Source: Methanobacteriota archaeon
Lineage (GTDB): Archaea; Thermoplasmatota; Thermoplasmata; SG8-5; JAGLSY01
Length of the DNA stretch: 26,164 nt
Assembly: GCA_020697715.1 (NCBI GenBank)
Contig: JAEHCO010000010.1
Location: 1-26,164, forward strand
Direction of reading: 5' to 3'
Made by a program: the position numbers and the translations under genes
Notes under the pieces: generated by a model
What the model was told of the DNA's origin: nothing
Seen by the model: only the letters and a program-made list of their open reading frames with translations
Databases searched by the model: none
In this document: positions 1,445 through 26,164 of the stretch, piece after piece
Layout of the letters: the number at the start of each line of letters is the position of its first letter
Numbering within the stretch: the first letter of the stretch is position 1

Positions 1445-4400
1445 CTACCAGTTCACAGTCCAGATCACATCTGAAGGCACATGCACCCAGTATCCATTAC
1501 CAGGTTCCATGAGGTCTCCAGCTCCCAATTGATCGACCATATATGGTGCTCCGGGATCGAAAGCCTCGACAATGTCCCAATTGGTCCCTGCCAATCCAAC
1601 AGCGACAGTTACCGCATTCAAACTTGGATATCCAACAAGGTTCCAGCCCGCATATAATTGGATATTTGTGGAGACAACTGCCACACCATATGAAGTATAA
1701 GTGCAAGGTTCGGTGGTGTGCACCCAGATGCCACGGTTTCTATCTAGATCATGCACCGTATTCAATGCATCTGGCCAATCAGTGGATGCGGTGAGCCAGG
1801 GTTCGGGCACTGTGGCATCATATACATACACTTGATCCCACTTGCCATTGATACTGGAAAGCACCTCTTCCAGGCTCTGATTACATTGGCGCATCGGCAC
1901 AGATATCAAATTCCAGCCAGCGATGAGGTCCTGTTTATGTTCAATTATCACCAGGGGGGCCATGTATGGATATCTGTCCAGACTGTCACCATCGATGATG
2001 TATGGTGTATCTCCTATTCCATCACTACCGGCTTGATCTTGAAGTGAGCCAGACATAAGATCAACACCACCGTAATCACTCCAATAATTTCCTCCTGAGG
2101 GATAGCCATTGTCCCACAGGACAGCCGAGCCATCATCAATTGCTTGCAAGGTATTGTCGATGAAATTGTTATGATATATTGTTGCATTCGTGCAGTTGGT
2201 CAATGAGATCCCCAGACTATTGTTCTCTATAACATTTCCACGCACTGCGAAGCCAGAGCAGTTCTCAAGCACTATTCCACTATTCCCATTTTCAAATATA
2301 TTAGAGTCAATTCCTATGCCCGCACACCCACTGATCCTTACGTAAATAGTACCAGGCGGGGCGATGCCAGTGAAGGTGTTGCCATTGACATCCAGTTCAA
2401 CATCCCTCCCTGCAGTCCCGGGTTTAGCGACAATATAGAATAACCCACGGTTACAATCACTCAATAGGTTGTCATCGATCTGGATTTCATCGGGGTGGGG
2501 CCAGCTGAATTCCTCCAAATTCAAGATATCAAAACCGATTTCGGAGTTGAATATGGAATTATTTATCAGATCCATATCAAGAGCTGAGCCAGTATCAAAA
2601 CGGTCCAAGGTCAGTTTCACTCCAGCGTAAGATGAATCTATTATAATATTGTCGAAAATGCTGTATCTCCTGTTCCCACAATCACCCAGTGCGCTGAGAT
2701 TGATGCTGATGTTCCAGTCTGTGAAGGTGTTGCCACTGTAAATATCTGGGATCCCGTCCCTGTCCTCATCAACATCATCATCCTCTATCCTCACGCCCTC
2801 TCTCCAGGGCAGGTATCCTGGTTCTGGAAAGATAGAGCCATTGAACTCATTGTCATCCAGTATAAGTCCTCTTACATTCTTCACCAGCACTCCGGCCTTT
2901 CCACCTTTTATCGTGCTGTTCTTGACCGTGGTATTAGTGGAGTTCTGGATCAGTATATTAGGTTGCGGGGATTCTGGGATCTCTATCTCATATTCCACAT
3001 CGAAGAATGAGTCCACGAAGTATGAGTCATTAGACTTCTTGTTCTTGACAGCCGAGCCATTCTTGACCTTTACAGTAGAGTTTTTGATAGTGGCCTTTGA
3101 GGAATTCTCGATCAGTATGCCAGTTGGTGCATCCGGGAATGTGATATTGTATTCCACATCGAAGAATGAGTCCACTGCAAATGTGTTCTTTGTGTTGTTC
3201 ATTTTTATTGCCGAACCATCTGTTATGTTAACCAAGAAATTACCCAGGGTCCAGTCATCACAATCATCCAATACGATACCATCCTCCAATTTGAGCTCGA
3301 GCTTTGTCAGAGTAATACTGATATTGGTCGATCTTGTACCATTGATAGCAGGCTTCACGGTATCCCTTACTGTGAAATTCCAGTTTCTCCAATCGCCACC
3401 TGGATTGTTTGTGTTATTGACCTTTGAAATACCGCCTGTATTATTGTCCGAGTCATCAATTGAGAGATTATAGATATCAATGTCTCCATTACATCCATCC
3501 AGGTCGGTAAAATACCAATCCTGTGTGTGGCCAGAATTGCCATCAAGGTAAATGCCCATTGAATCAATGAAATGGAACCCTGCTCCACCTCTTACCTGGA
3601 AACCGGTCATGTCCTGACCACCCTCGCCGCCTAAGACCATAGGATTGTTCTTGCACTCGGTGAGTCCACCGAATGAAAGGGTGTCAAGGCAGACTGCATC
3701 CCCTCCGATCCCTATCCCATAAACTCCCATACCCAGATCCGTACCCAGGTTCAATCCACCATCACCGCCTTGGATGAGACCATTTCCTTGGATAAGCATT
3801 GTACCTATGTCATTGGTCTCCAGGGCATAGATAGCATCACCGCCATTTCCACTGTAACCATTGAGCATGGCGAGATTTTCTCCACCATCCCCTCCAGATA
3901 TCTCAAGATTGTTTGTTATCTTGATGGCGTGGTTGTCAAGGAAGGGATCTCCTATATCAGTAAGGGCATTGGAGAATATTCCACTGCCGCCATTCCCGGC
4001 AATTCCATCGTCCAGCCCGTTCATCCCTCCAGCTCCACCTTTGATCAGCATATTATTTTCAATTATCAACTGTGGGCCGAACATACTGTCCCCCTGGAAA
4101 TTGTCAAGGAATATTCCATGTCCTCCAGGGAATGGGTTCATTCCATCATAATCATCCCCATATCCTCCCACTATCGTGTTCATGGAGAACCAGGGAGCAT
4201 TACCTAGATTATTGCCTGTGATCGTTATGGCTGGCTGGCCTGGCAGATATGAGCCAGGGGTCGCGTTCTTCCCATATATCTGATTATTGTTCAGCATTGC
4301 ATTTGAGTTCGAGAGGTAGACGCCAGAACCACCATTGTCGTAAATGTGATTGTCATTGATACCCATCATATAATCTTCTAGCCAGACGCCATGGTTGGTA

Positions 4401-7230: not shown

Positions 7231-7328
7231 AGTTGATGGAGTTTACCGAGTTGATGGAGTTTGTCGAGTTGATGGAGTTTGTCGAGTTGATGGAGTTTGT
7301 CGAGTTGATGGAGTTTACCGAGTTGATG
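7231..7328. repeat. 18-bp tandem repeat, about 5.4 copies (AGTTGATGGAGTTT[AC/GT]CG)
   Basis: Read directly; two unit variants and a 9-bp sub-period. Confidence 0.95.
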
Positions 7329-10542: not shown

Positions 10543-11067
10543 TCATCTGCAGACCCTTCTGCCCATATTATTGAAGATACGCTCGACATTCTCGCCGGAT
10601 TTGGCACTGGACAAGTAAAAATTAGCCTCAAACTTCTCTGCAACCATCTCAAGATCCAGAGAGGTCATCTGATGCTCCGCTTCAAGGTCATTCTTATTTC
10701 CCACCAGGGTGATCGGCACCTTGCCAGCGATACTCGTGAAGCCATCATACCACCACTTCACACGATCCAGAGTTTCCTTCCTGGTCATGTCCACCACGAT
10801 GAAAGCTCCCTTGGAACCATTATAATAGGTATTCTGAAGAGCCTCGTGCTTGGCCTGGCCTAAAATATCATGTATCATAAGATTCAACTTGATATCAGTG
10901 CCATCATCCGCTATGAACTCCAGAGGTTTCTTGGTGACCTTGGTTCCGATGGTCATGATATATTCATCCTTGAAATCATCAAAAACAAACCTTCTTATCA
11001 GTGATGTCTTGCCTACGGCACCGTCGCCCAGCATACATATTTTCTTGATATAGTTCCTTTTGACCAT
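10543..11067 (-). CDS. Small Ras/Rab-like GTPase
   Basis: G1 GDGAVGKTS, G2 TIG, G3 DILGQ, G4 NKND, G5 SAK. Confidence 0.93.
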   Translation of the reverse strand: MVKRNYIKKICMLGDGAVGKTSLIRRFVFDDFKDEYIMTIGTKVTKKPLEFIADDGTDIKLNLMIHDILGQAKHEALQNTYYNGSKGAFIVVDMTRKETLDRVKWWYDGFTSIAGKVPITLVGNKNDLEAEHQMTSLDLEMVAEKFEANFYLSSAKSGENVERIFNNMGRRVCR

Positions 11068-15488: not shown

Positions 15489-15962
15489 ATGAACACTATG
15501 AAAGCCATGTTCGGAGGAGGTTGCTTTTGGGGTATAGAAGAAGAATTCAGGAATGTCCCAGGAGTATTGGATACAAAAGTAGGTTATTCTGGAGGAGACA
15601 CCGAGAACCCCACATACAAAAAGGTCTGCAGCGGCATGACCGGCCACGCGGAAGTGGCTCTTGTCACCTATGATCCAGAAAAGGTGAGCTATGAGGAACT
15701 TCTCGATACCTTCTGGAACATACACGATCCAACAACTCTCAATTTGCAAGGCCCTGACATCGGCACACAATACCGTTCAGTAATATTTTATTTTGACGAT
15801 AGCCAGTTAGAAAAGGCGACCTTATCAAAAGATGATCTGCAACAAAGATCCAGCAGAGAGATCGTCACACAGATAAAACCAGCTGGCAAATTCTGGAAAG
15901 CGGAGGAATACCATCAACGCTACCGTCAGAAGGCCAGCTTCCCCGGATGTTGCACGGCATGA
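15489..15962 (+). CDS. msrA: Peptide methionine sulfoxide reductase A
   Basis: [32 protein letters not shown]. Confidence 0.97.
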
Positions 15963-16321
15963 GCCAGGAAGATGAACTGCGCGAGCATGTGATGAGAAGA
16001 AAGGGTACTGAACCCCCTTTCTCTGGCAAGTACCTCGCGGAGAATCGCCCAGGCGTGTACAAATGCGCTGGCTGCGGTCATGAATTATTCTTATCAGATT
16101 CCAAGTTCGATTCGGGATGCGGCTGGCCGAGCTTCGACCGACCAGCAGATGAAAGCGCTGTCACGACCAAGCCAGACCTAAGCCACATGACGGTCAGAAC
16201 CGAAGTCATCTGTCCAAAGTGTGGAGGCCATCTTGGCCATGTTTTCAATGACGGGCCGACCGAGACAGGCAAGCGGTATTGCATTAACTCGGTGGCGCTG
16301 GATCTTAGGGCGAATGACTAG
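15959..16321 (+). CDS. msrB: Peptide methionine sulfoxide reductase B
   Basis: GTEPPF, two Cxx[27 protein letters not shown]; ATGA overlap with the msrA stop. Confidence 0.97.
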
Positions 16322-16799
16322 GCCTTCTTCCACTCCCAGGATTGGCTCGATATTGCTGCTGTCCAGATATGTAATGTTCCACAACCTCGAAGCCCTGGCC
16401 AACGCTCCCATGATAGCATCCAGGAGCCCACAGGGCTTTCGGACACCACTTGACGAGCTGCGGGTATTTCTTACGCAGCTCGCGACTTGAATTCGCCTTG
16501 ATGGCCTCCACGATCCTGCTGGTAGCCAGCTTGGGGGAATATTGAATGAACAAATGGACATGATCCTCAGCCACCGCCATTTCCAGTATCTTAACATCCA
16601 GCACCTTGCACGTCCATCGAATTTGCCTCTCACATTCGATGGCCACCCCGCCTTTCAGCACCTTGGCGCGATACTTCGGCGTAAGGACAACATGACATGC
16701 CATCATGCTCGTGGTATGCCGGTCCTTTCTTTCAGCGAACTTACTGCCAGTACCTTTTTTGTATCGGTGCTTCGAGTGCTGAGACGGGGCTTTTGCCAT
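16305..16799 (-). mobile_element. tnpA: IS200/IS605-family Y1 HUH transposase, no tnpB
   Basis: HVVLTPKYR, HUH motif DHVHL, IKANSSR, LW..G, catalytic Tyr in HYISGQ; start set at MAKAP. Confidence 0.92.
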
Positions 16800-16961
16800 G
16801 GAACTGAGTATTCGATCGGTGGTATAAAAGGATGAATTGGGGGAGGGCGAAAGTATTTTGGGAATGGAGAGCCAGTGAACAAAATATAGTACTTTCGCTG
16901 ATCTGTGATGAGAGCTTATAAAGAAAGTCCGCATTTTTGTTGGGGTAATGCGGAAACCCTG

Positions 16962-17022: not shown

Positions 17023-17056
17023 ATATATGCAACTCAGATAATAAATAGTTTCCTAT

Positions 17057-17144
17057 GCCGAGGTAGCCAAGCCAGGAATGGCGGTTGGTTGAAGACCAAC
17101 TGGATCTCCCCAGGTCTTCGCGGGTTCAAATCCCGTCCTCGGCG
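17057..17144 (+). tRNA. Type II tRNA: serine-like body with a GAA (Phe) anticodon
   Basis: Acceptor GCCGAGG/CCTCGGC with G73; D stem GCCA/TGGC; anticodon stem GTTGG/CCAAC with loop TTGAAGA; 19-nt variable arm with GATCT/AGGTC stem; T arm GCGGG-TTCAAAT-CCCGT. Confidence 0.88.
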
Positions 17145-17216
17145 GGGTTTCCACACAAGCCAGACTGACTGGGGCACGAGCAAAAGTCACGATCTGTATA
17201 GCACATACACATGGGC

Positions 17217-17276
17217 ATACCCCGACCTTACCGAGGCTTGGTACAGGTACAAGCCTCGTCTGTAAGGACGGGGTAT
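17217..17276. other. 60-nt inverted repeat between the tRNA and the first array gene
   Basis: Nested arms ATACCCCG/CGGGGTAT, CCTTAC/GTAAGG, CGAGGCTTG/CAAGCCTCG; followed by TTTATATA. Confidence 0.8.
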
Positions 17277-17327
17277 TTATATACACGTGTAGCTATACAT
17301 GTGTATCGTGACTTGCGAGGGAAGTGA

Positions 17328-18224
17328 TTGAACACCAAAGGAGATGTGCCAGTTAAGAAATATATTATGTTTTCTGATTTACCTATTAGTGGATTTTATA
17401 AATTCGATGATGTATTCCAAATGATACCACCACCAGATGACTGGCCTAAACCAAGAGCAACTATAGGACACCATCCAATATTAATAGAATACAAAGACGA
17501 AATCGCTGTAGAATTAATTGATCTATTAAGTGTTTTTTCAAATTACTACTTCTTTCAATATTCTAATAACCAAGCTTGGTTTATAGATCTGGCCAATCAT
17601 AAAAATGACTCAGTATGGGGTCAAGAAGTCTATAAATCAGATATAGTGAATCAGATCGAATTCGAAAGTGAAGATTTTTCTAAACATGAAAAGGAAATTG
17701 ATTTTATTGAGCATAATGAGTATTTTAATACTTATGCTGGCCGTTTAAGAACAGACCCAATTAATTTTCCAGAATCCCTTTCAGATTTATACAGAAAATA
17801 CCTATCTTTAGATACAGAAAAAAGAAAAGCCTATCGAAATGCCAGTATTCTTTTCAAATCAGGATTGTTGTTAAAAGATGAAAGGATAAATTTAAGTCTA
17901 GCCTATGTATCATTTATTTCCTGTATTGAAACACTGATTTATTATGAACATAAAGATGAGGATATTGAACGGTGTAAACATTGTGGCCAGTTAAGATACA
18001 GAACAACAAGAAAATTTAAAGATTTTATGGAAAAATATATTTCTAAGGATAAAGATTTTCAAAAATACAGTCAAGATATTTATAACATTAGAAGCCAGAT
18101 AATTCATAGAGGACAATTGCTAATTTCAGATGAAAAAATGTTTGAGTTGATGGACTCTGTCAAAATTGAATATCTAATTCGTTTGACAAGAATTACTATG
18201 GTTAACTGGCTAGTATCAAATTAA
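17328..18224 (+). CDS. HEPN-domain (ApeA-like) protein, possibly a defence RNase; array gene 1
   Basis: FISCIETL helix, CKHC insert, YNIRSQIIHRG (Rx4H) motif; AT-rich. Confidence 0.75.
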   Translation: MNTKGDVPVKKYIMFSDLPISGFYKFDDVFQMIPPPDDWPKPRATIGHHPILIEYKDEIAVELIDLLSVFSNYYFFQYSNNQAWFIDLANHKNDSVWGQEVYKSDIVNQIEFESEDFSKHEKEIDFIEHNEYFNTYAGRLRTDPINFPESLSDLYRKYLSLDTEKRKAYRNASILFKSGLLLKDERINLSLAYVSFISCIETLIYYEHKDEDIERCKHCGQLRYRTTRKFKDFMEKYISKDKDFQKYSQDIYNIRSQIIHRGQLLISDEKMFELMDSVKIEYLIRLTRITMVNWLVSN

Positions 18225-18553
18225 GCGTCCCGAGCAGGGGGGATTTTCGCAGGAAATTGGGCCAGCGCAGGGACAAGAGGGTGGGAGTTAGGCACATCTC
18301 CGTATACAGGGAACGACCGAGCTTCCGAGGAGCGAGATTATTATCGTATTGAGCGACGAGTTAGGATGCCTCGCTCGAAGTAACTGGCTAAGTTTCGAAG
18401 AAAATAGCCAGTTGCTGAGAGTTGGGACGAGCACAGCGAGCCCAATCCCGAGCCACGCAGGGACGGGGTTACAAAACGAAAGTCATATAAGTGAGACTTT
18501 CGATTCACTTGGGCAAGCGTAGTCATGCCCCGTAAAAAAGTCTGGCTGCCTAA
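18225..18553 (+). repeat. Structured intergenic repeat R0 (divergent left arm, one core)
   Basis: Shares the 5' hairpin, core GATGCCTCG...GGCAAG and right arm GTCATGCCCC..AGTCTGGCT with R1-R4. Confidence 0.93.
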
Positions 18554-18569
18554 TAATATGGTGGAGAAG

Positions 18570-19229
18570 ATGGTAAAAATAGCTGAAATTCCTAAATGGA
18601 TGTATATTGTGATTATTGCAATAATAGTGATTGGAATCATAAGTTTATATCCTGAATATTCTAATGATAACGAACAGGATGATGATGATCGTAGTATGCA
18701 TTATTATGGTGTAGAAATATCTTTAGAATATTCAGACAGTCCTATATACATTAATGACCTTAGTTTAAATGATTCAAATCTAAATAATCTAACAAATGAA
18801 ACATTTTCATTAATTATAGAAGTGGAATTGCCATCTGGCAATCAATCAGTAGTGTATCCATTTATGATAGTCCAATCAAATAATACTTGTGAAATAGTGC
18901 AAAATTATTCTATAAGATATGAGAATTATTCTTATTGGACAGATATGGTATTTTACAGCACAAATAGAACAGATGAAATATACAATTTTACGATTAGATG
19001 GGATATAAATTCTACAGACGCCCATATACAAAATCTATCGTTATTAGGCACATATAATGAGATTAAAGGATCCTTCTTTGTGGAATCCTCACCCTATTCA
19101 TCTAATGCTTCTGTTGATAATAAATATCTGGATATTTGCAATGTTGTAAATGAAAGATGGTACTCGGATATAATATTACCATTCAACATTAACATTCATA
19201 TTGAGCCATTTTTAGGAGGATCTAGTTGA
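18570..19229 (+). CDS. Membrane-anchored Asn-rich surface protein; array gene 2
   Basis: N-terminal TM helix, many N-x-S/T sequons; GGTGGAG RBS before ATG 18570. Confidence 0.8.
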   Translation: MVKIAEIPKWMYIVIIAIIVIGIISLYPEYSNDNEQDDDDRSMHYYGVEISLEYSDSPIYINDLSLNDSNLNNLTNETFSLIIEVELPSGNQSVVYPFMIVQSNNTCEIVQNYSIRYENYSYWTDMVFYSTNRTDEIYNFTIRWDINSTDAHIQNLSLLGTYNEIKGSFFVESSPYSSNASVDNKYLDICNVVNERWYSDIILPFNINIHIEPFLGGSS

Positions 19230-19234
19230 ATTAA

Positions 19235-19570
19235 CCGCTCCGAGCAGGGGGGATTTCCGCAGGAAATTGGGCCAGCACAGGAGCGGAAGGGTGGGCGTTT
19301 AGGTAAGCCAGACTAGTAGGGGGCATGACGTAGCGCGCCTGGAGCGAGTTTAATTCACATTCGACGCGAGCGACCCGTAGATGCCCCGCCCGAAGTTTTC
19401 CGACAGAGCAGTGACGCTTACAGCCAGGAAAACGAGGGTTGGGACGAGCACAGCGAGCCCAATCCTGAGCAACGCAAGGACGGGGTTACATAATGGAAAC
19501 GATTTTAAGTAACGTTTCCTATTCACTTAGGCAAGCGTAGTCATGCCCCCGTTAAGAAGTCTGGCTACCT
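19235..19570 (+). repeat. Structured intergenic repeat R1 (one core)
   Basis: CCGCTCC..GGAGCGG hairpin; long-range arms AGGTAAGCCAGACT..GGGGGCATGAC / GTCATGCCCCC..AGTCTGGCTACCT. Confidence 0.95.
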
Positions 19571-19594
19571 TACAAAAATGGTGGAAGAGAGAAA

Positions 19595-19933
19595 ATGGAT
19601 AAATCCTATAAAATTGCTTTCATAATTTACGTGATAATAGCATTGAGTATAATTTCAGCTGGCCTATATGCATATTTTTATTCAATAGAGGATCAAATTC
19701 AAGAGGTGGAAGAAGCGGCTCAAGAAGCTGGGCTTGGTTCAGCTTACACCAGTATTGATGGTCATCCCTTCAGAAACGTTGGAATTTTCTATATTACAAT
19801 GGGAGTATTCATGCTTATTATTGGAGTGATTAGTTATAAGAAAAAGAAGAGTGAAATATTCAAACCAGTCCGCTCCGAGCAGAAGGGTGAGCGAAGCGAG
19901 GGGTCAGCGGAGGAGCGGAAGGGTGGGAGTTAG
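19595..19933 (+). CDS. Two-TM membrane protein whose C-terminus reads into R2; array gene 3
   Basis: GGTGGAAG RBS; two hydrophobic helices; stop TAG lies inside the repeat. Confidence 0.8.
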   Translation: MDKSYKIAFIIYVIIALSIISAGLYAYFYSIEDQIQEVEEAAQEAGLGSAYTSIDGHPFRNVGIFYITMGVFMLIIGVISYKKKKSEIFKPVRSEQKGERSEGSAEERKGGS

Positions 19934-20507
19934 GTAAGCCAGACTAAAACGGGGCATGACAGCGCAGACTTCAGCGACGAGTTAGACGAGGAGAAAAGGA
20001 TGCCTCGCTCGAAGGAGCTGGCACATCGTAGATGGACAGATCCTGAAGAGTTGGGACGACCGAAGACGAGCTTGCTCGTCGAGGCACGGACAAATTGCGT
20101 AGCAATTAGTCCAGTGGCGCAGCGAGCCCAATCCCGAGCCACGCAGGGACGGGGAGGGTGCAACGAAAGTCATATAAGTGAGACTTTCGATTCACTTGGG
20201 CAAGGAGAAAAGCCAGACTACTGGCTATATCTCTACAATGGCTTTTTGACGCAGACCGGAGCGGGTACAATTTACATTCATTAATTATTCAAAACAATTG
20301 ACGCAAGCGACCCGTGATGCCTCGCTCGTAGATTTTCGTCCTTTCAGTGACGCCAGTAACCAGAAAATCAAGAGTTGGCACGAGCAAAGCGAGGCCAATC
20401 CTGAGCAACGCAAGGGCGAGGAGCAATAATGCGAATGCTTTTTAAGTACCATTCGCTATTCACTTAGGCAAGCGTAGTTATGCCCCCGTTAAGAAGTCTG
20501 GCTACCT
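19870..20507 (+). repeat. Structured intergenic repeat R2 (two cores, linker, 61-nt insert)
   Basis: Cores at 19999-20204 and 20316-20472. Confidence 0.95.
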
Positions 20508-20529
20508 AACAAAAATCGGTGGAAGAGAA

Positions 20530-21170
20530 GTGAAATATAATATTCTGAATCGGAGGAGTTATTTATCAACGGATCTAACGGATTAAATGAATCAAATGCA
20601 CACAATTCATCTGTCACAGATGAGAAGCCAATCAGTAGTTACAATAATAGCTCGAAACCTTCTCCTTCGATTATCGGCTCTTTCCTTTTTATATTAGGAT
20701 GTATAAGTGTGACTTTTTTATTATTATATTGCATTCTCATATCTGAGCGAAGCAATACTGTATATGAAGATTTAACTCTAATTTTCTTAGCTACAGGAAT
20801 TTTGCTAATAGGATTATATTTATTGGCAAAGACACCTCATGTGATTATATCATATATTTCAGTGTCATTAATGTGCTTTCTTTGGATTAATACCGTTATA
20901 GTTGGTATAATGTCTACAATGATTGGGACGTCTTACGGAATTATATCTGCACAAATTGAAGGCATGGCATACATTTTAATCACACTTCTAGCCATATTAA
21001 GTTCAAAATTAGCTTTTCAGCGAAGACAAACACATTGGATTATTATCGCAGGCGTATCAACTATTATTCTTGGGTTTATTATGCTGTTCTTCAGTGCGAT
21101 TTTCGTTATACTGGCTGTTATTTGTGTAGTTCTTCTTGCGGTATCGCAAAACCAATCAGAAATGGGATGA
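20530..21170 (+). CDS. Multi-pass membrane protein with an apparent 5' frameshift; array gene 4
   Basis: RBS GGTGGAAG then GTG 20530; the long frame is open from 20541 to 21170 but out of frame with that GTG; ORF track starts at 20709. Confidence 0.65.
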
Positions 21171-21188
21171 TTTGCGAATATAGCCAGT

Positions 21189-21804
21189 CCGCTCCGAGCA
21201 GAAGGGTGAGCGAAGCGAGGGGTCAGCGCAGGAGCGGAAGGGTGGGAGTTAGGTAAGCCAGACTAGTAGGGGGCATGACGTAGCGCGGCCTCAGCCGAGT
21301 TTATATTATTAGCAATGATTATTCAGATCCAGTGACGCAAGGCGTCCGTAGATGCCTCGCCGAAGAAATCTGTCCTATATTTGACGGCCAGTCAAGATTT
21401 CGCACGGTTGGGACGAGCACAGCGAGCCCAATCCCGAGCAACGCAGGGACGGGGTTACAAAACGAAAGTCATATAAGTGAGACTTTCGATTCACTTGGGC
21501 AAGGAGAAAAGCCAGACTACTGGCTGTATCTCTACAATGGCTTTTTGACGCAGACCGGAGCGTGTACAATCTCTCTACATTTTATCAGTATAAGATTTGA
21601 CGCAAGCGACACCGTGATGCCTCGCTCGTAGATTTCCGACAGAGCAGTGACGAGAGTAGCCAGGAAATCAAGAGTTGGGACGAGCGCCAGCGAGCCCAAT
21701 CCTGAGCAACGCAAGGGCGAGGAGCACTAATGCGAATGTATTTTAACTAACATTCGCTATTCACTTAGGCAAGCGTAGTCATGCCCCCCAGAAAAGTCTG
21801 GCTA
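21189..21804 (+). repeat. Structured intergenic repeat R3 (two cores and linker)
   Basis: Cores at 21351-21503 and 21616-21773; linker nearly identical to that of R2 apart from its AT-rich variable segment. Confidence 0.95.
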
Positions 21805-21831
21805 ACGTAAAATGGGAAGAGGTTAGAAGTA

Positions 21832-22353
21832 ATGGCACACCTTATAAAAACTCCAAAATCGGCATATTATGAAGATGATAAATATGAATCAAATATAATA
21901 TTAAATTTGTTACTAGTTAATGGTTTGGCTTGCTTTATTCCATATATATTTTGTTATTTTTACAACTTATATTTAATAACTGAACTTAGAAATACGATAT
22001 TTGATAATTTTCGACAAGAATCTTTCGCTATTCCAGATACCTCCTCAATTACTACTCAAATTGAACTCAACCAAATCATTATGATCATTACTGGATTGAT
22101 CTATTTTGTAATTGTAATCATGAGTGTGATATTAATAGTTAAAGATGCAAAAACATTACATGTTGGTGCAGCTTATTCTGGAGAAAGATTTTTTAGGCCA
22201 TTAACTTGGGAAATACATAGTTGGGGCATATTAACATTTTTCTTTTGGTGGTTCATTTTTCCTCTTTATGTATATCGCAGAAAAGAGATTTATGAAGTTA
22301 ATAAAGTAGCCTTTGATGCATATACACCAGCTCCGCTCCGAGCAGAAGGGTGA
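21832..22353 (+). CDS. Three-TM membrane protein ending inside R4; array gene 5
   Basis: Hydrophobic helices, FPLYVYRR tail, GAGG upstream; stop TGA lies inside the repeat. Confidence 0.8.
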   Translation: MAHLIKTPKSAYYEDDKYESNIILNLLLVNGLACFIPYIFCYFYNLYLITELRNTIFDNFRQESFAIPDTSSITTQIELNQIIMIITGLIYFVIVIMSVILIVKDAKTLHVGAAYSGERFFRPLTWEIHSWGILTFFFWWFIFPLYVYRRKEIYEVNKVAFDAYTPAPLRAEG

Positions 22354-22644
22354 GCGAAGCGAGGGGTCAGCGGAGGAGCGGAAGGGCGGGAGTTTAGGTA
22401 AGCCAGACTAGTAGGGGGCATGACAGCGCAGACTTCAGCGACGAGTTAGACGAGGAGTAAAAGGATGCCTCGCTCGAAGGAGCTGGCACATCGTAGATGG
22501 ACAGATCCTGAAGAGTTGGGACGAGCAAAGCGAGCCCAATCCCGAGCCACGCAGGGACGGGGAGGGTGCAACGAAAGTCATATAAGTGAGACTTTCGATT
22601 CATTTAGGCAAGCGTAGTCATACCCTCAAAAAAGTCTGGCTACT
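22333..22644 (+). repeat. Structured intergenic repeat R4 (one core)
   Basis: Nearly identical to the first half of R2 without the insert, followed by the right arm. Confidence 0.95.
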
Positions 22645-22667
22645 CCCAAATAATAGAGGTGGAAGAG

Positions 22668-22916
22668 ATGAAAACTCAGCTTAAATATCTAGGAGCCATT
22701 ATGGTCATTATAGGACTGATAATAGCATCTGGAGGTTTATATGAGGGGAGTTCTGTTAGGTTTAATACCACGATCTCGGAAGCAATGCCTACGATACTAA
22801 CTGGCATTGCCCTTTTTGTAGTTGGCTCAATGATGTGGTTATTCATTCAGGAGAGTGGAAAGAAGATGACTGAATCCGAGAAGAACTGGCTATCAGATGA
22901 AGAGGATAAGGAATAA
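22668..22916 (+). CDS. Small two-TM membrane protein; array gene 6
   Basis: GAGGTGGAAG RBS before ATG 22668; two TM helices. Confidence 0.8.
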   Translation: MKTQLKYLGAIMVIIGLIIASGGLYEGSSVRFNTTISEAMPTILTGIALFVVGSMMWLFIQESGKKMTESEKNWLSDEEDKE

Positions 22917-22956: not shown

Positions 22957-23457
22957 CTATGTTATCGTGATATCCTGATCCTTCTTCATGTCAAAGCCTG
23001 GCATGTCCAGACGAGCCTTGATCTCGAATTTTAATCTTGAATCTGTGTGTGTGGTCCCACCAGCGATGGCCCTCATCACGGCAACTCCGGCTTGAGCTCC
23101 CTCGCTCATCTCATTTGTCGTGGTTGTCTGCTGGGATCCAAGGATGTCCATGGGTATCATGATATTGAAATCATACGAGCCCTCTTTGTATTCCTTCTCT
23201 CCGTCCAATGGCATCTTGAACTTATGCACGGTCGTGTATTTTGTCTGGGTGCCTGATTTGTGATTGGAACCCCCACCAACAGCACCCGATGATGTGCGGA
23301 ACTTGTCTATCCTCGTGCCGATGAATTCGACGAACAGTTCCTTTCCCTCGGTTGGCTTCTTCAGCTTGATATTGACCTTGCCAGTGATCTCATCTCCTGG
23401 CTTGAAATTGTATTTATCTAATTGCAGTTCCATTGTTCCTTTTGAAAATAACCCCAT
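22957..23457 (-). CDS. Arrestin-N/Spo0M-like beta-sandwich protein
   Basis: LDK..FKPGDEITGKV.I.L, Y.F...IP and IKARLDMPG pattern. Confidence 0.65.
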   Translation of the reverse strand: MGLFSKGTMELQLDKYNFKPGDEITGKVNIKLKKPTEGKELFVEFIGTRIDKFRTSSGAVGGGSNHKSGTQTKYTTVHKFKMPLDGEKEYKEGSYDFNIMIPMDILGSQQTTTTNEMSEGAQAGVAVMRAIAGGTTHTDSRLKFEIKARLDMPGFDMKKDQDITIT

Positions 23458-25222: not shown

Positions 25223-25276
25223 TCTTGGCATCCCATAATAATTTCATAGTACTAGCCTCAGCTCATTTTCAGAATA

Positions 25277-25364
25277 CGAATGATTTTATGTAACGTTTAC
25301 TATTCACTAAGGCAAGCGACAAACAACAAAATTGTCTGCCCGCTAGTAGGAAGAGAGGTGGAAG
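25277..25364 (+). repeat. Degenerate 3' remnant of the array repeat plus RBS
   Basis: CGAATGATTTTATGTAACGTTTACTATTCACTAAGGCAAGCG matches the R1/R3 core ends; GAGGTGGAAG as in R4. Confidence 0.8.
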
Positions 25365-25366
25365 AA

Positions 25367-26164
25367 ATGAAAATAATTCGCTATATGACAGTAATAATTG
25401 TAATACTATTATGTATGTCTAGCCAGCAATTGATATCTGAAGCATCGGGAGATGAATATAATATCGTATTTCAATCTTTATCCACTTTCGTCTTTGAAGG
25501 AATAATGTCAATAGATGGAAGTAATGCAATTTCAATTAGAGAAGCAATAGATCAAATGGGGAATGATAATGGGGTGGTCGATAGTGATGAAGTTAGTGAA
25601 TTGGAAAAAATTGCTGAAGAATCCATTAATTCAGGGAGCTCAGAGGTTATAGAGATCACCTTAAATGGAGTGGCATGCGATATTTCAAATGGCGATTATT
25701 ACATTGAAGGCGCCTTAGGGCCAGTTAACAATCCAGACAAAATTGAATTTGTCATAGAATTCATATATGAATGCCCCAAGATAAACTTGGAATTAGATCA
25801 CTATGAATTCACAATTTTGAATTATCCCAGAGCAAGTCTTGACTATGATGATATGTTCAATATGGAAACAGAGACATATAACATCATTATACCATCACAA
25901 TATACAATTACTTCAACAAATGGATTAGACATCATCACACAATCTGGCAGAGTTCTAACCGCAGAATATGCCGGAGGAGATATTGTTGTTGAATATGAAG
26001 TAGATTTCGATGAGGATGGGGTCAGAGATTCAAGAGATGCATTTCCAGAAGATGGATCCGAATGGGAAGATTCTGATGATGATGGAGTTGGAGATAATTC
26101 TGATGAATTCCCTGAAGATGATACTGAATGGGAAGATTCTGATGATGATGGAGTTGGAGATAAT
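25367..26164 (+). CDS. Secreted acidic protein with thrombospondin type 3-like Ca-binding repeats (truncated by window edge)
   Basis: Not in the ORF track; MKIIRYMTVIIVILLC signal; DFDEDGVRDSRDAFP, DSDDDGVGDNSDEFP, DSDDDGVGDN repeats. Confidence 0.85.
   Translation, partial: MKIIRYMTVIIVILLCMSSQQLISEASGDEYNIVFQSLSTFVFEGIMSIDGSNAISIREAIDQMGNDNGVVDSDEVSELEKIAEESINSGSSEVIEITLNGVACDISNGDYYIEGALGPVNNPDKIEFVIEFIYECPKINLELDHYEFTILNYPRASLDYDDMFNMETETYNIIIPSQYTITSTNGLDIITQSGRVLTAEYAGGDIVVEYEVDFDEDGVRDSRDAFPEDGSEWEDSDDDGVGDNSDEFPEDDTEWEDSDDDGVGDN

Follow-up and report, generated by a model that had tools for sequence, protein, structure and literature searches.

Integrons are, to our knowledge, the only well-established platforms for the capture of gene cassettes, and they depend on a tyrosine recombinase that acts on folded single-stranded DNA (ssDNA). 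Archaeal integrons, as described in the available sections of PMC9668308, consist of IntI and ordinary attC sites. The IS200/IS605 insertion sequences and their non-autonomous PATE derivatives are treated in the available parts of PMC5027513 and PMC3597680, and REPtrons, in which a RAYT (TnpA-REP) goes together with REP/BIME repeats, in those of PMC3333891, PMC8266576 and PMC5581495. For Archaea, subclass 1.1 is the only IS200 subclass reported in the accessible portion of PMC6006769, which does not mention cassettes. A full-text literature search, with subscription journals and supplements outside its scope, yielded no paper in which gene-cassette arrays are connected with a Y1 transposase. 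Here we describe such an arrangement in a stretch of 26,164 nucleotides (nt) of a Methanobacteriota archaeon (GTDB Thermoplasmatota, Thermoplasmata, SG8-5; contig JAEHCO010000010.1 of assembly GCA_020697715.1, positions 1 to 26,164), hereafter called the window. Long folded repeats alternate here with small open reading frames (ORFs) next to the gene of an IS200-type transposase, TnpA. From the comparison of sequences we consider it somewhat probable that the repeats are the junctions of an integron-like cassette array and that the recombinase is a domesticated IS200-type Y1 (HUH) transposase.

The array (17146-22916) follows the order Y1/HUH TnpA gene, tRNA-like gene, leader ending in CGTGACTT and low-GC ORFs that alternate with a module termed B. 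Five GC- and purine-rich blocks, R0 to R4, with a length of about 340-670 nt, are located between the ORFs at 18219-22670; the intervening ORFs have a GC content of 28-40% and are found on the plus strand without exception. A block starts with an optional A module directly 3' of the stop codon, of the form CCGCTCC, hairpin, GGAGCGG AAGGGTGGG, and continues with a 3' arm and the folded B of ~190 nt, which ends in ATTCACTT; the next ORF's 5' arm, Shine-Dalgarno sequence and start codon follow. All seven B modules of the window are on the plus strand like the ORFs, and every cassette features a Shine-Dalgarno sequence and an intact ORF on this same strand. R2, R3 and one block of contig C4 contain two to three B modules, with a short hairpin where an ORF would stand. 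The array thus comprises, together with its head, the following features:

16305..16799, minus strand: IS200-type Y1 (HUH) transposase TnpA (PF01797, E 1e-28), with HVH motif and Y-I-S-G-Q in the translation.
17056..17145, plus strand: tRNA-like gene with a long variable arm and anticodon GAA (Rfam tRNA, 55 bits; ARAGORN).
17146..17314, plus strand: leader, an attI-like mini-site, with helix CCTCG (17254-17258)/CGGGG (17269-17273), AT-rich hairpin (17280-17305) and CGTGACTT (17307-17314).
17315..18510, plus strand: cassette 1, with 5' arm GGAGATGTGCC (17340-17350), ORF 17367-18224, A module (~18225-18290), 3' arm GGCACATCTCC (18291-18301) and B (18325-18511); the arms are complementary across the ORF.
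18511..19528, plus strand: cassette 2, with 5' arm 18522-18547, ORF ending at 19229, A module with ATTTCC-GCA-GGAAAT (19253-19267), 3' arm 19306-19329 and B 19337-19529.
19529..20197, plus strand: cassette 3, with 5' arm 19540-19566, ORF 19595-19933, A module with GC-GAA-GC, 3' arm 19937-19960 and B 19957-20198, which has a 60-nt P5 insert holding AATTGC-GTA-GCAATT.
20198..20465, plus strand: ORF-less unit, first copy, with hairpin AGCCAG-ACTA-CTGGCT, then B 20274-20466; 89% identity to 21461-21610 (family D4).
20466..21496, plus strand: cassette 5, with 5' arm 20477-20503, ORF 20709-21170, A module, 3' arm 21256-21279 and B 21308-21497.
21497..21766, plus strand: ORF-less unit, second copy, with B 21573-21767.
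21767..22605, plus strand: cassette 7, with 5' arm 21778-21803, ORF 21832-22353, A module, 3' arm 22401-22424 and B 22421-22606, which holds CATC-GTA-GATG at 22489-22499.
22606..22916, plus strand: terminal array gene, with 5' arm-like leader 22617-22641 and ORF 22659-22916, without A module, 3' arm or B after the ORF.

Further array pieces make up six small contigs (C4, C7, C8, C16, C19 and C24; 0.5-4.9 kb) of the source genome (2.12 Mb assembly, completeness 93.8%; G000 in our numbering), which indicates that the assembly breaks at the repeats and that the real arrays are longer than that of the window.

TnpA is a single-copy protein in the source genome (one match), and its gene lies 250 nt from the array head in divergent orientation. 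The tyrosine motif is Y---Q as in IS200 subclass 1.1. The stop codon of TnpA overlaps the 3' end of msrB (ORF 15947-16321), leaving no room for a downstream IS end; with one copy and no downstream end of its own, TnpA does not present itself as an autonomous multicopy IS element. TnpB (PF07282) was without match in the 93.8% complete genome, and HEARO was not matched in the Rfam scan of 18200-22700. In the order, PF01797 was found in 16 of 22 genomes and in all seven of high quality, and all 20 TnpA loci of the relatives were compared. An array-type clade with 53-76% identity to the window TnpA comprises 15 genomes (14 relatives) with at most one full-length copy each; in G011, G014 and G015 an additional TnpA fragment adjoins the full-length copy. 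In 14 of these 15 genomes (13 of the 14 relatives) the gene is located 0.1-2.5 kb from a leader or an array, the remaining one (G011) being at a contig end, and within a genus its position is syntenic. The five other TnpA genes share only 28-31% identity: four are ordinary IS200 elements with their own hairpin ends and no array, and the fifth (G019) adjoins a B module. One ordinary IS200 is common to two species (L048/L066; G010:C15 and G020:C80), with 86% identity over 713 nt and TTTA-loop hairpins at both ends. A search of metagenome contigs returned five TnpA loci, one of which duplicates G010:C115 while four (1.1-2.8 kb) are too short for context; two loci from further genome contigs were not new.

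An alignment of the leader covers 12 genomes from four families. It shows ACAAGCCTCGTCTG.AAGGRCGGGGTA with little or no variation, followed by an AT-rich stretch and the invariant CGTGACTT, 3' of which the 12 genomes have unrelated sequences. Of the structure of B the leader retains only the local P2a helix, the hairpin and the word T.ACTT, which are the elements that end every B (ATTCACTT). This reduced content fits a minimal site, as far as can be judged from the alignment.

As in integrons, the content of a same-strand array varies among relatives. The cassette ORFs of the window have no match at the DNA level in three congeners of the source genome. Three cassettes (X, Y and Z) are common to congeners of another genus with 82-91% identity at different array positions: X and Y are adjacent in this order in G007, whereas in G014 X is preceded by the leader and one ORF-less unit and in G010 a ParE cassette precedes Y; the cassettes of G010 open with Z behind the leader, but in G007 Z occupies a position far inside the array. 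All three pairs become homologous exactly at T.ACTT. Upstream of Z there is a leader in G010 and a B in G007, unrelated right up to T.ACTT, and homologous recombination is therefore an unlikely cause of this difference. At the other side the shared homology spans the ORF and the 3' arm to ~CTGGAGCG and fades beyond it; B may travel with its cassette or may be homogenised later. A further shared cassette was considered for the ParE genes of G003 and G010 and rejected (30% identity only). Eighteen of 25 ORFs have no Pfam family; the remaining cargo consists of two ParE toxins, a metallo-beta-lactamase (MBL) hydrolase, two beta-helix proteins, a thioredoxin-like protein and a phosphoesterase, and so looks like integron cargo.

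A covariance model of B, built from 27 copies, found 89 copies (85 distinct) in the TnpA and array loci searched, always on the strand of their array. Of 18 genomes sampled from the order, 14 have B by this model, compared with one of 133 other genomes of the class. In an alignment of the 85 distinct sequences that was fitted to the model, and is biased in its favour, 95.2% of the cells of the six helices are paired (73.7% in shuffles), the covariation score is 0.452 versus 0.151, a value that none of 500 shuffles reached and that falls to 0.127 or less if the helices are slid by 1-3 columns, and both sides change in 22 of 30 pairs. RNAalifold, run independently on a MAFFT alignment, returned four B helices with compensatory changes. 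P7, the terminal hairpin that precedes ATTCACTT, covaries in 7/7 pairs of its stem. G.T pairs occupy 140 of 2232 helix cells compared with 28 for A.C, which identifies the plus strand as the folded strand of B. The helices are arranged as a multi-way junction with conserved unpaired bases, like those of structured RNAs. Minimum free energy (MFE) z-scores of three repeats (-1.1 to -6.0 on both strands, with RNA and DNA parameters) provided no discrimination. A K-turn and a C/D-box were considered for the words GUGAUGC/CUGA in B and rejected, the two words not being positioned to pair. One solo B core (P2-P6, without the terminal hairpin) is located on the minus strand of contig C11 (558840-558980) of the source genome near tRNA-Ser(GGA).

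The arms that flank an ORF belong to unrelated sequence types, GGCACATCTCC/GGAGATGTGCC and AGCCAGACT..GGGGCATGAC/GTCATGCCCC..AGTCTGGCT, and matching arms face each other across an ORF and not across a repeat. R0 is of mixed type, combining a 3' arm of type 1 with a 5' arm of type 2; the partner of its type-1 arm is found at 17340-17350, upstream of the first ORF. For 27 cassettes from seven arrays in four genomes, cognate arms had a mean duplex energy of -41.1, as opposed to -28.6 in 702 non-cognate pairs and -30.7 in 17 pairs across a repeat (cognate versus non-cognate, Mann-Whitney p = 1.2e-7), and in 17 cases the cognate arm was among the three best of 27. Bulge-helix-bulge (BHB) processing motifs were not seen in the arms by eye.

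The 5' stem and loop of P7 read CGAAAGT-CATATAAG, GGAAACG-ATTTTAAG or CGAAAGG-TATTTACA and are located ~25 nt upstream of the junction, about as far as TATATATA in the leaders. Compared with the archaeal consensus from general knowledge, not with a prediction tool, the AT-rich loop and 5' stem resemble a B recognition element (BRE) and TATA box and may be called promoter-like. Each junction would then also provide a promoter for the next cassette. The covariation of P7 is superfluous for a double-stranded promoter. A module of hairpin, ATTCAC.T and 5' arm is also found alone upstream of six genes outside the arrays, with Shine-Dalgarno sequence and ATG directly following:

C2:13044, C11:879969, C22:13058, C22:187605 and C22:279354 of the source genome, and window 25273: solo modules, mostly upstream of genes for small membrane or secreted proteins.
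~25230..25320, plus strand: the window's solo hairpin with ATTCACT, GGCAAG and Shine-Dalgarno sequence (BLAST match 25273-25318), upstream of ORF 25280-26164.

These solo modules may be secondary insertion sites or a promoter family.

Taken together, we tentatively propose, from sequence data, an 'HUH integron' in which a domesticated IS200 transposase captures, shuffles and expresses cassettes via folded ssDNA sites with junction promoters; as a complete scheme this is possible, if not quite probable. TnpA would bind the terminal hairpin P7, together with helix P2a, of the leader or of B on plus-strand ssDNA and would cut after T.ACTT. Cassettes would be excised and inserted at these cuts in the way IS200/IS605 elements insert 3' of a fixed short word, and pairing of the cassette's own arms would join its two cut sites in space. 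The B junction would double as promoter (BRE/TATA) for the following cassette, and c-GNA-g triloops and tandem G.A pairs would cap and stiffen the peripheral hairpins of the fold. Inspection by eye of the sequence 5' of P7 for an IS608-like guide/cleavage-site pairing revealed no conserved tetranucleotide, no formal test being made.

The c-GNA-g triloops had been the starting point of a preliminary description of the repeats, which took them as a sign that the functional molecule is ssDNA and not RNA. All five hairpins named there are present on the plus strand:

19253-19267, plus strand: ATTTCC-GCA-GGAAAT; the R0 variant ATTTTC-GCA-GGAAAT is at 18243-18257.
18393-18403, plus strand: TTTC-GAA-GAAA.
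19891-19897, 21210-21216 and 22354-22360, plus strand: GCGAAGC.
20024-20034 and 22489-22499, plus strand: CATC-GTA-GATG.
20093-20107, plus strand: AATTGC-GTA-GCAATT.

Counting perfect stems of at least 4 bp with 300 dinucleotide shuffles as expectation, five of ten triloop hairpins in the window repeats have a c-GNA-g loop (0.29 expected; no shuffle reached five). For all repeat copies of the source genome the value is 11 of 38 (0.75 expected; 0/300 shuffles), but because several counted copies are homologous only about six of these hairpins are independent. No c-GNA-g hairpin is read on the minus strand. In the arrays of G003, G007 and G010 there are three versus 1.03 expected, a count reached by 33 of 300 shuffles and not significant. 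The A hairpin keeps its c-GNA-g loop across genomes: a regular-expression search gave 27 lines, 18 of them true A modules, of which 12 have this loop on at least six different stems, two have c-ATA-g and two a CGCA tetraloop, one is irregular and one is without hairpin. Ribosomal RNA could not serve as a control for loop usage, since models of the small and large subunit (SSU and LSU) had no match in the source assembly. Three copies of a further c-GCA-g hairpin, TCCCAA.GTCC-GCA-GGACTTGGGA, are present in locus L054 (G014:C21) at ~2090-2150 and 3040-3065, where they flank a two-gene module with an MqsA-like zinc-ribbon protein between array leader and TnpA.

The recurrent GA-rich internal loops that had also been pointed out are real. 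Helix P5 of B has the form CGA-NN-triloop-NN-GAG, in which a 2-bp covarying stem (GC/GC, CC/GG, GT/AC) stands between tandem G.A positions. The C-G-N-A-G and CGAG/CGAG motifs at hairpin tips and in P5 are like those of d(GCGAAGC)-type DNA mini-hairpins and tandem sheared G.A pairs, which differ in being local motifs, not a system, and are tolerated in RNA, too. C-G-closed triloops are not usual RNA caps. Nevertheless, the conclusion 'not RNA' is not borne out: the triloops are enriched only in this genus and, elsewhere, in the A hairpin, B has RNA-like traits, and any read-through would place the repeats on the transcripts of the ORFs. By themselves the triloops would not suffice for an ssDNA reading; they fit a DNA fold without proving one. 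That the repeats are ssDNA recognition or recombination sites is partly supported, by the linkage to the Y1 enzyme in 14 of 15 genomes and by the homology edges at T.ACTT, not by the triloop argument, which is weak.

Several observations weigh against the repeats being junctions that are recombined by TnpA. The B core and P7 after shared cassettes differ between species and are genome-specific or mosaic, so that the sharp homology edges may partly reflect concerted evolution and not crossovers, except for the leader-versus-B context of Z. The relative orientation of TnpA and array varies, in genus g5 two to three genes lie in between, and kin genomes are non-independent observations. B, with its 190 nt, far exceeds known end sites of TnpA. 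The left end of a cassette has no P7-like hairpin; in IS200/IS605 elements the left end usually has one. In the arms G.T and A.C are found 24 and 17 times among 608 aligned positions, hence no strand bias is evident there. The solo modules indicate that hairpin, ATTCAC.T and 5' arm may primarily be promoter and 5' untranslated region (UTR), and the solo B core on C11 is directly downstream of a TrmB-like gene with no TnpA nearby. Finally, a conserved U.G wobble in 53 of 78 B sequences and the 6% of G.T are more typical of RNA.

The last points lead to an alternative in which the fold acts as RNA. The array would be transcribed and the B core would be a structured 3'-UTR or processing element, the arms would close each mRNA by pairing its 5' UTR with the sequence 3' of the stop codon and would so stabilise or process it, and TnpA would be a relic by which the promoter hairpin was formerly spread. 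We regard this as unlikely. Repeats that are always on the sense strand of the ORFs, the excess of G.T over A.C with one conserved wobble pair, and the junction with its conserved unpaired bases are all expected of an RNA; the same applies to the solo hairpin and 5'-arm modules that abut the Shine-Dalgarno sequence and ATG of six other genes, to the solo B core just 3' of a gene, and to the last array gene, which has a 5' arm without partner. Yet Rfam 15 gave no match in 18200-22700 at E up to 5, the tRNA being the only match at gathering score, and P7, which would be outside its RNA if it were a promoter, has a covarying stem. The arms lack a G.U excess, and C-G-closed triloops are poor candidates for RNA caps. 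An RNA role would also leave unexplained the species-specific cassette orders with their T.ACTT joints, the leader-versus-B context of Z and the linkage to one single-copy TnpA clade. B core and arms may also have the role of a DNA site and that of an RNA together.

Quite improbable in our opinion is an origin of the array from selfish, non-autonomous IS200 derivatives similar to PATE or miniature inverted-repeat elements (MITE), which would have been stacked head to tail in an AT-rich island with the ORFs as passengers or decaying genes, with homologous recombination between the repeats as the main source of change and without any organised role in capture or expression. Composite repeats with two or three B modules, ORF-less units, and fragments and solo pieces elsewhere in the genome would be in agreement with such a history, and the genome-specific, mosaic B cores suggest recombination and homogenisation. 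However, decaying passengers would not be expected to have a Shine-Dalgarno sequence and an intact same-strand ORF in all cassettes and a promoter-like element at each junction, nor selfish elements a leader and a TnpA clade that are conserved over four families with at most one full-length copy per genome; moreover, TnpA, which overlaps msrB, is not followed by an IS end there. A classical integron or CALIN (cluster of attC sites lacking integrase) with IntI as tyrosine recombinase would account for same-strand short ORFs separated by folded repeats and for cassette ends that are complementary like core and inverse-core sites, but is extremely improbable, as the only tyrosine recombinase match of the genome (PF00589) is on another contig (C29:40807-41310) and none was found among the 25 window ORFs scanned, the repeats have 190-340 nt instead of 57-141 nt and neither a GTTRRRY core nor an Rfam match (no dedicated attC model was run), and the wobble pairs indicate a folded top strand, while attC sites fold from the bottom strand.

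The tRNA-like gene at the array head is of class II with a Ser-like G discriminator, and the source genome also has a normal 73-nt tRNA-Phe and three tRNA-Ser. It heads arrays in some genomes only, in two genera, namely also in G003 (two copies), G007, G010 and G012, while in G005, G008 and G001 a 'Leu' tRNA (gag or cag) is found at the equivalent place. Its relatives are:

L045, 12725-12813, minus strand: tRNA-like gene.
L046, 8857-8945, minus strand: tRNA-like gene.
L047, 1231-1318 and 1710-1796, minus strand: two tRNA-like genes.
L062, 395-484, minus strand: tRNA-like gene.

A product with anticodon GAA that carried Ser or Leu would misread Phe codons, of which the AT-rich cassettes have many. 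The possibility that this gene is itself a cassette with complementary flanks was rejected, as only G010 fits (-25.4 versus a non-cognate mean of -14.1). The spacer between TnpA and tRNA-like gene (16929-16958) contains a hairpin TCCGCATT...AATGCGGA followed by ACCCTGGTAGCCG, which is conserved in G010 (CCGCAT..ATGCGG).

Other features of the window are a tandem repeat of 18 nt, AGTTGATGGAGTTTGTCG, at 7231-7328 (5.4 copies, 95% matches) between two divergent genes, a Ras-family small GTPase at 10543-11067 on the minus strand (PF00071, E 1e-36), a weakly arrestin-N-like ORF at 22957-23457 on the minus strand, and a 66-nt tandem repeat at 26036-26164 in ORF 25280-26164, which encodes acidic repeats of the DSDDDGVGDN type and in which the contig ends.

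If our proposal is true, a second capture platform would exist on the basis of a Y1 HUH transposase, an example of convergent or independent evolution with a different recombinase chemistry. Archaea would have a means of replacing genes rapidly, in this case mostly genes for small membrane or secreted proteins and for toxins, and the uses of IS200-type enzymes would extend past selfish transposition and REP processing. A compact ssDNA recombinase with sequence and structure specificity and a defined site would also be of value as a tool.

The array has in common with integrons (IntI/attI/attC) a platform gene with a leader site, a one-strand array of mostly unknown small ORFs including toxins, folded single-strand junctions, mutually complementary cassette ends and a content that differs between close relatives. 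In contrast, the candidate enzyme is a Y1 HUH transposase instead of a tyrosine recombinase, the junction comprises 190-340 nt and six helices instead of the 57-141 nt of attC, the core word is T.ACTT instead of GTTRRRY, the top strand appears to be folded, and each junction has a promoter-like element, while the expression of integron cassettes depends mostly on Pc. The IS200/IS605 family, for its part, provides the subclass 1.1-type TnpA with its HUH and Y---Q motifs, a right-hand hairpin with a fixed short word ~8 nt on, an apparent insertion in one orientation 3' of this word and a strand-specific fold. Contrary to these elements, the TnpA described here never exceeds one full-length copy in a genome, shows synteny within a genus and has no IS ends of its own in the window; passenger genes are part of the units, which are stacked head to tail, and the units lack a recognisable left-end hairpin, have ends that pair mutually and a right-end element that is several times larger. 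REPtrons, as far as the available parts of the cited papers describe them, share a single-copy, apparently domesticated Y1 transposase that is linked to structured repeats of the same genome. Their REPs are palindromes of 20-40 nt dispersed by the hundreds in intergenic regions of bacteria, whereas the present repeats are long and clustered and delimit cassettes. This TnpA is not a RAYT but belongs to the IS200 subclass, and its repeats are confined to arrays and a few solo pieces.

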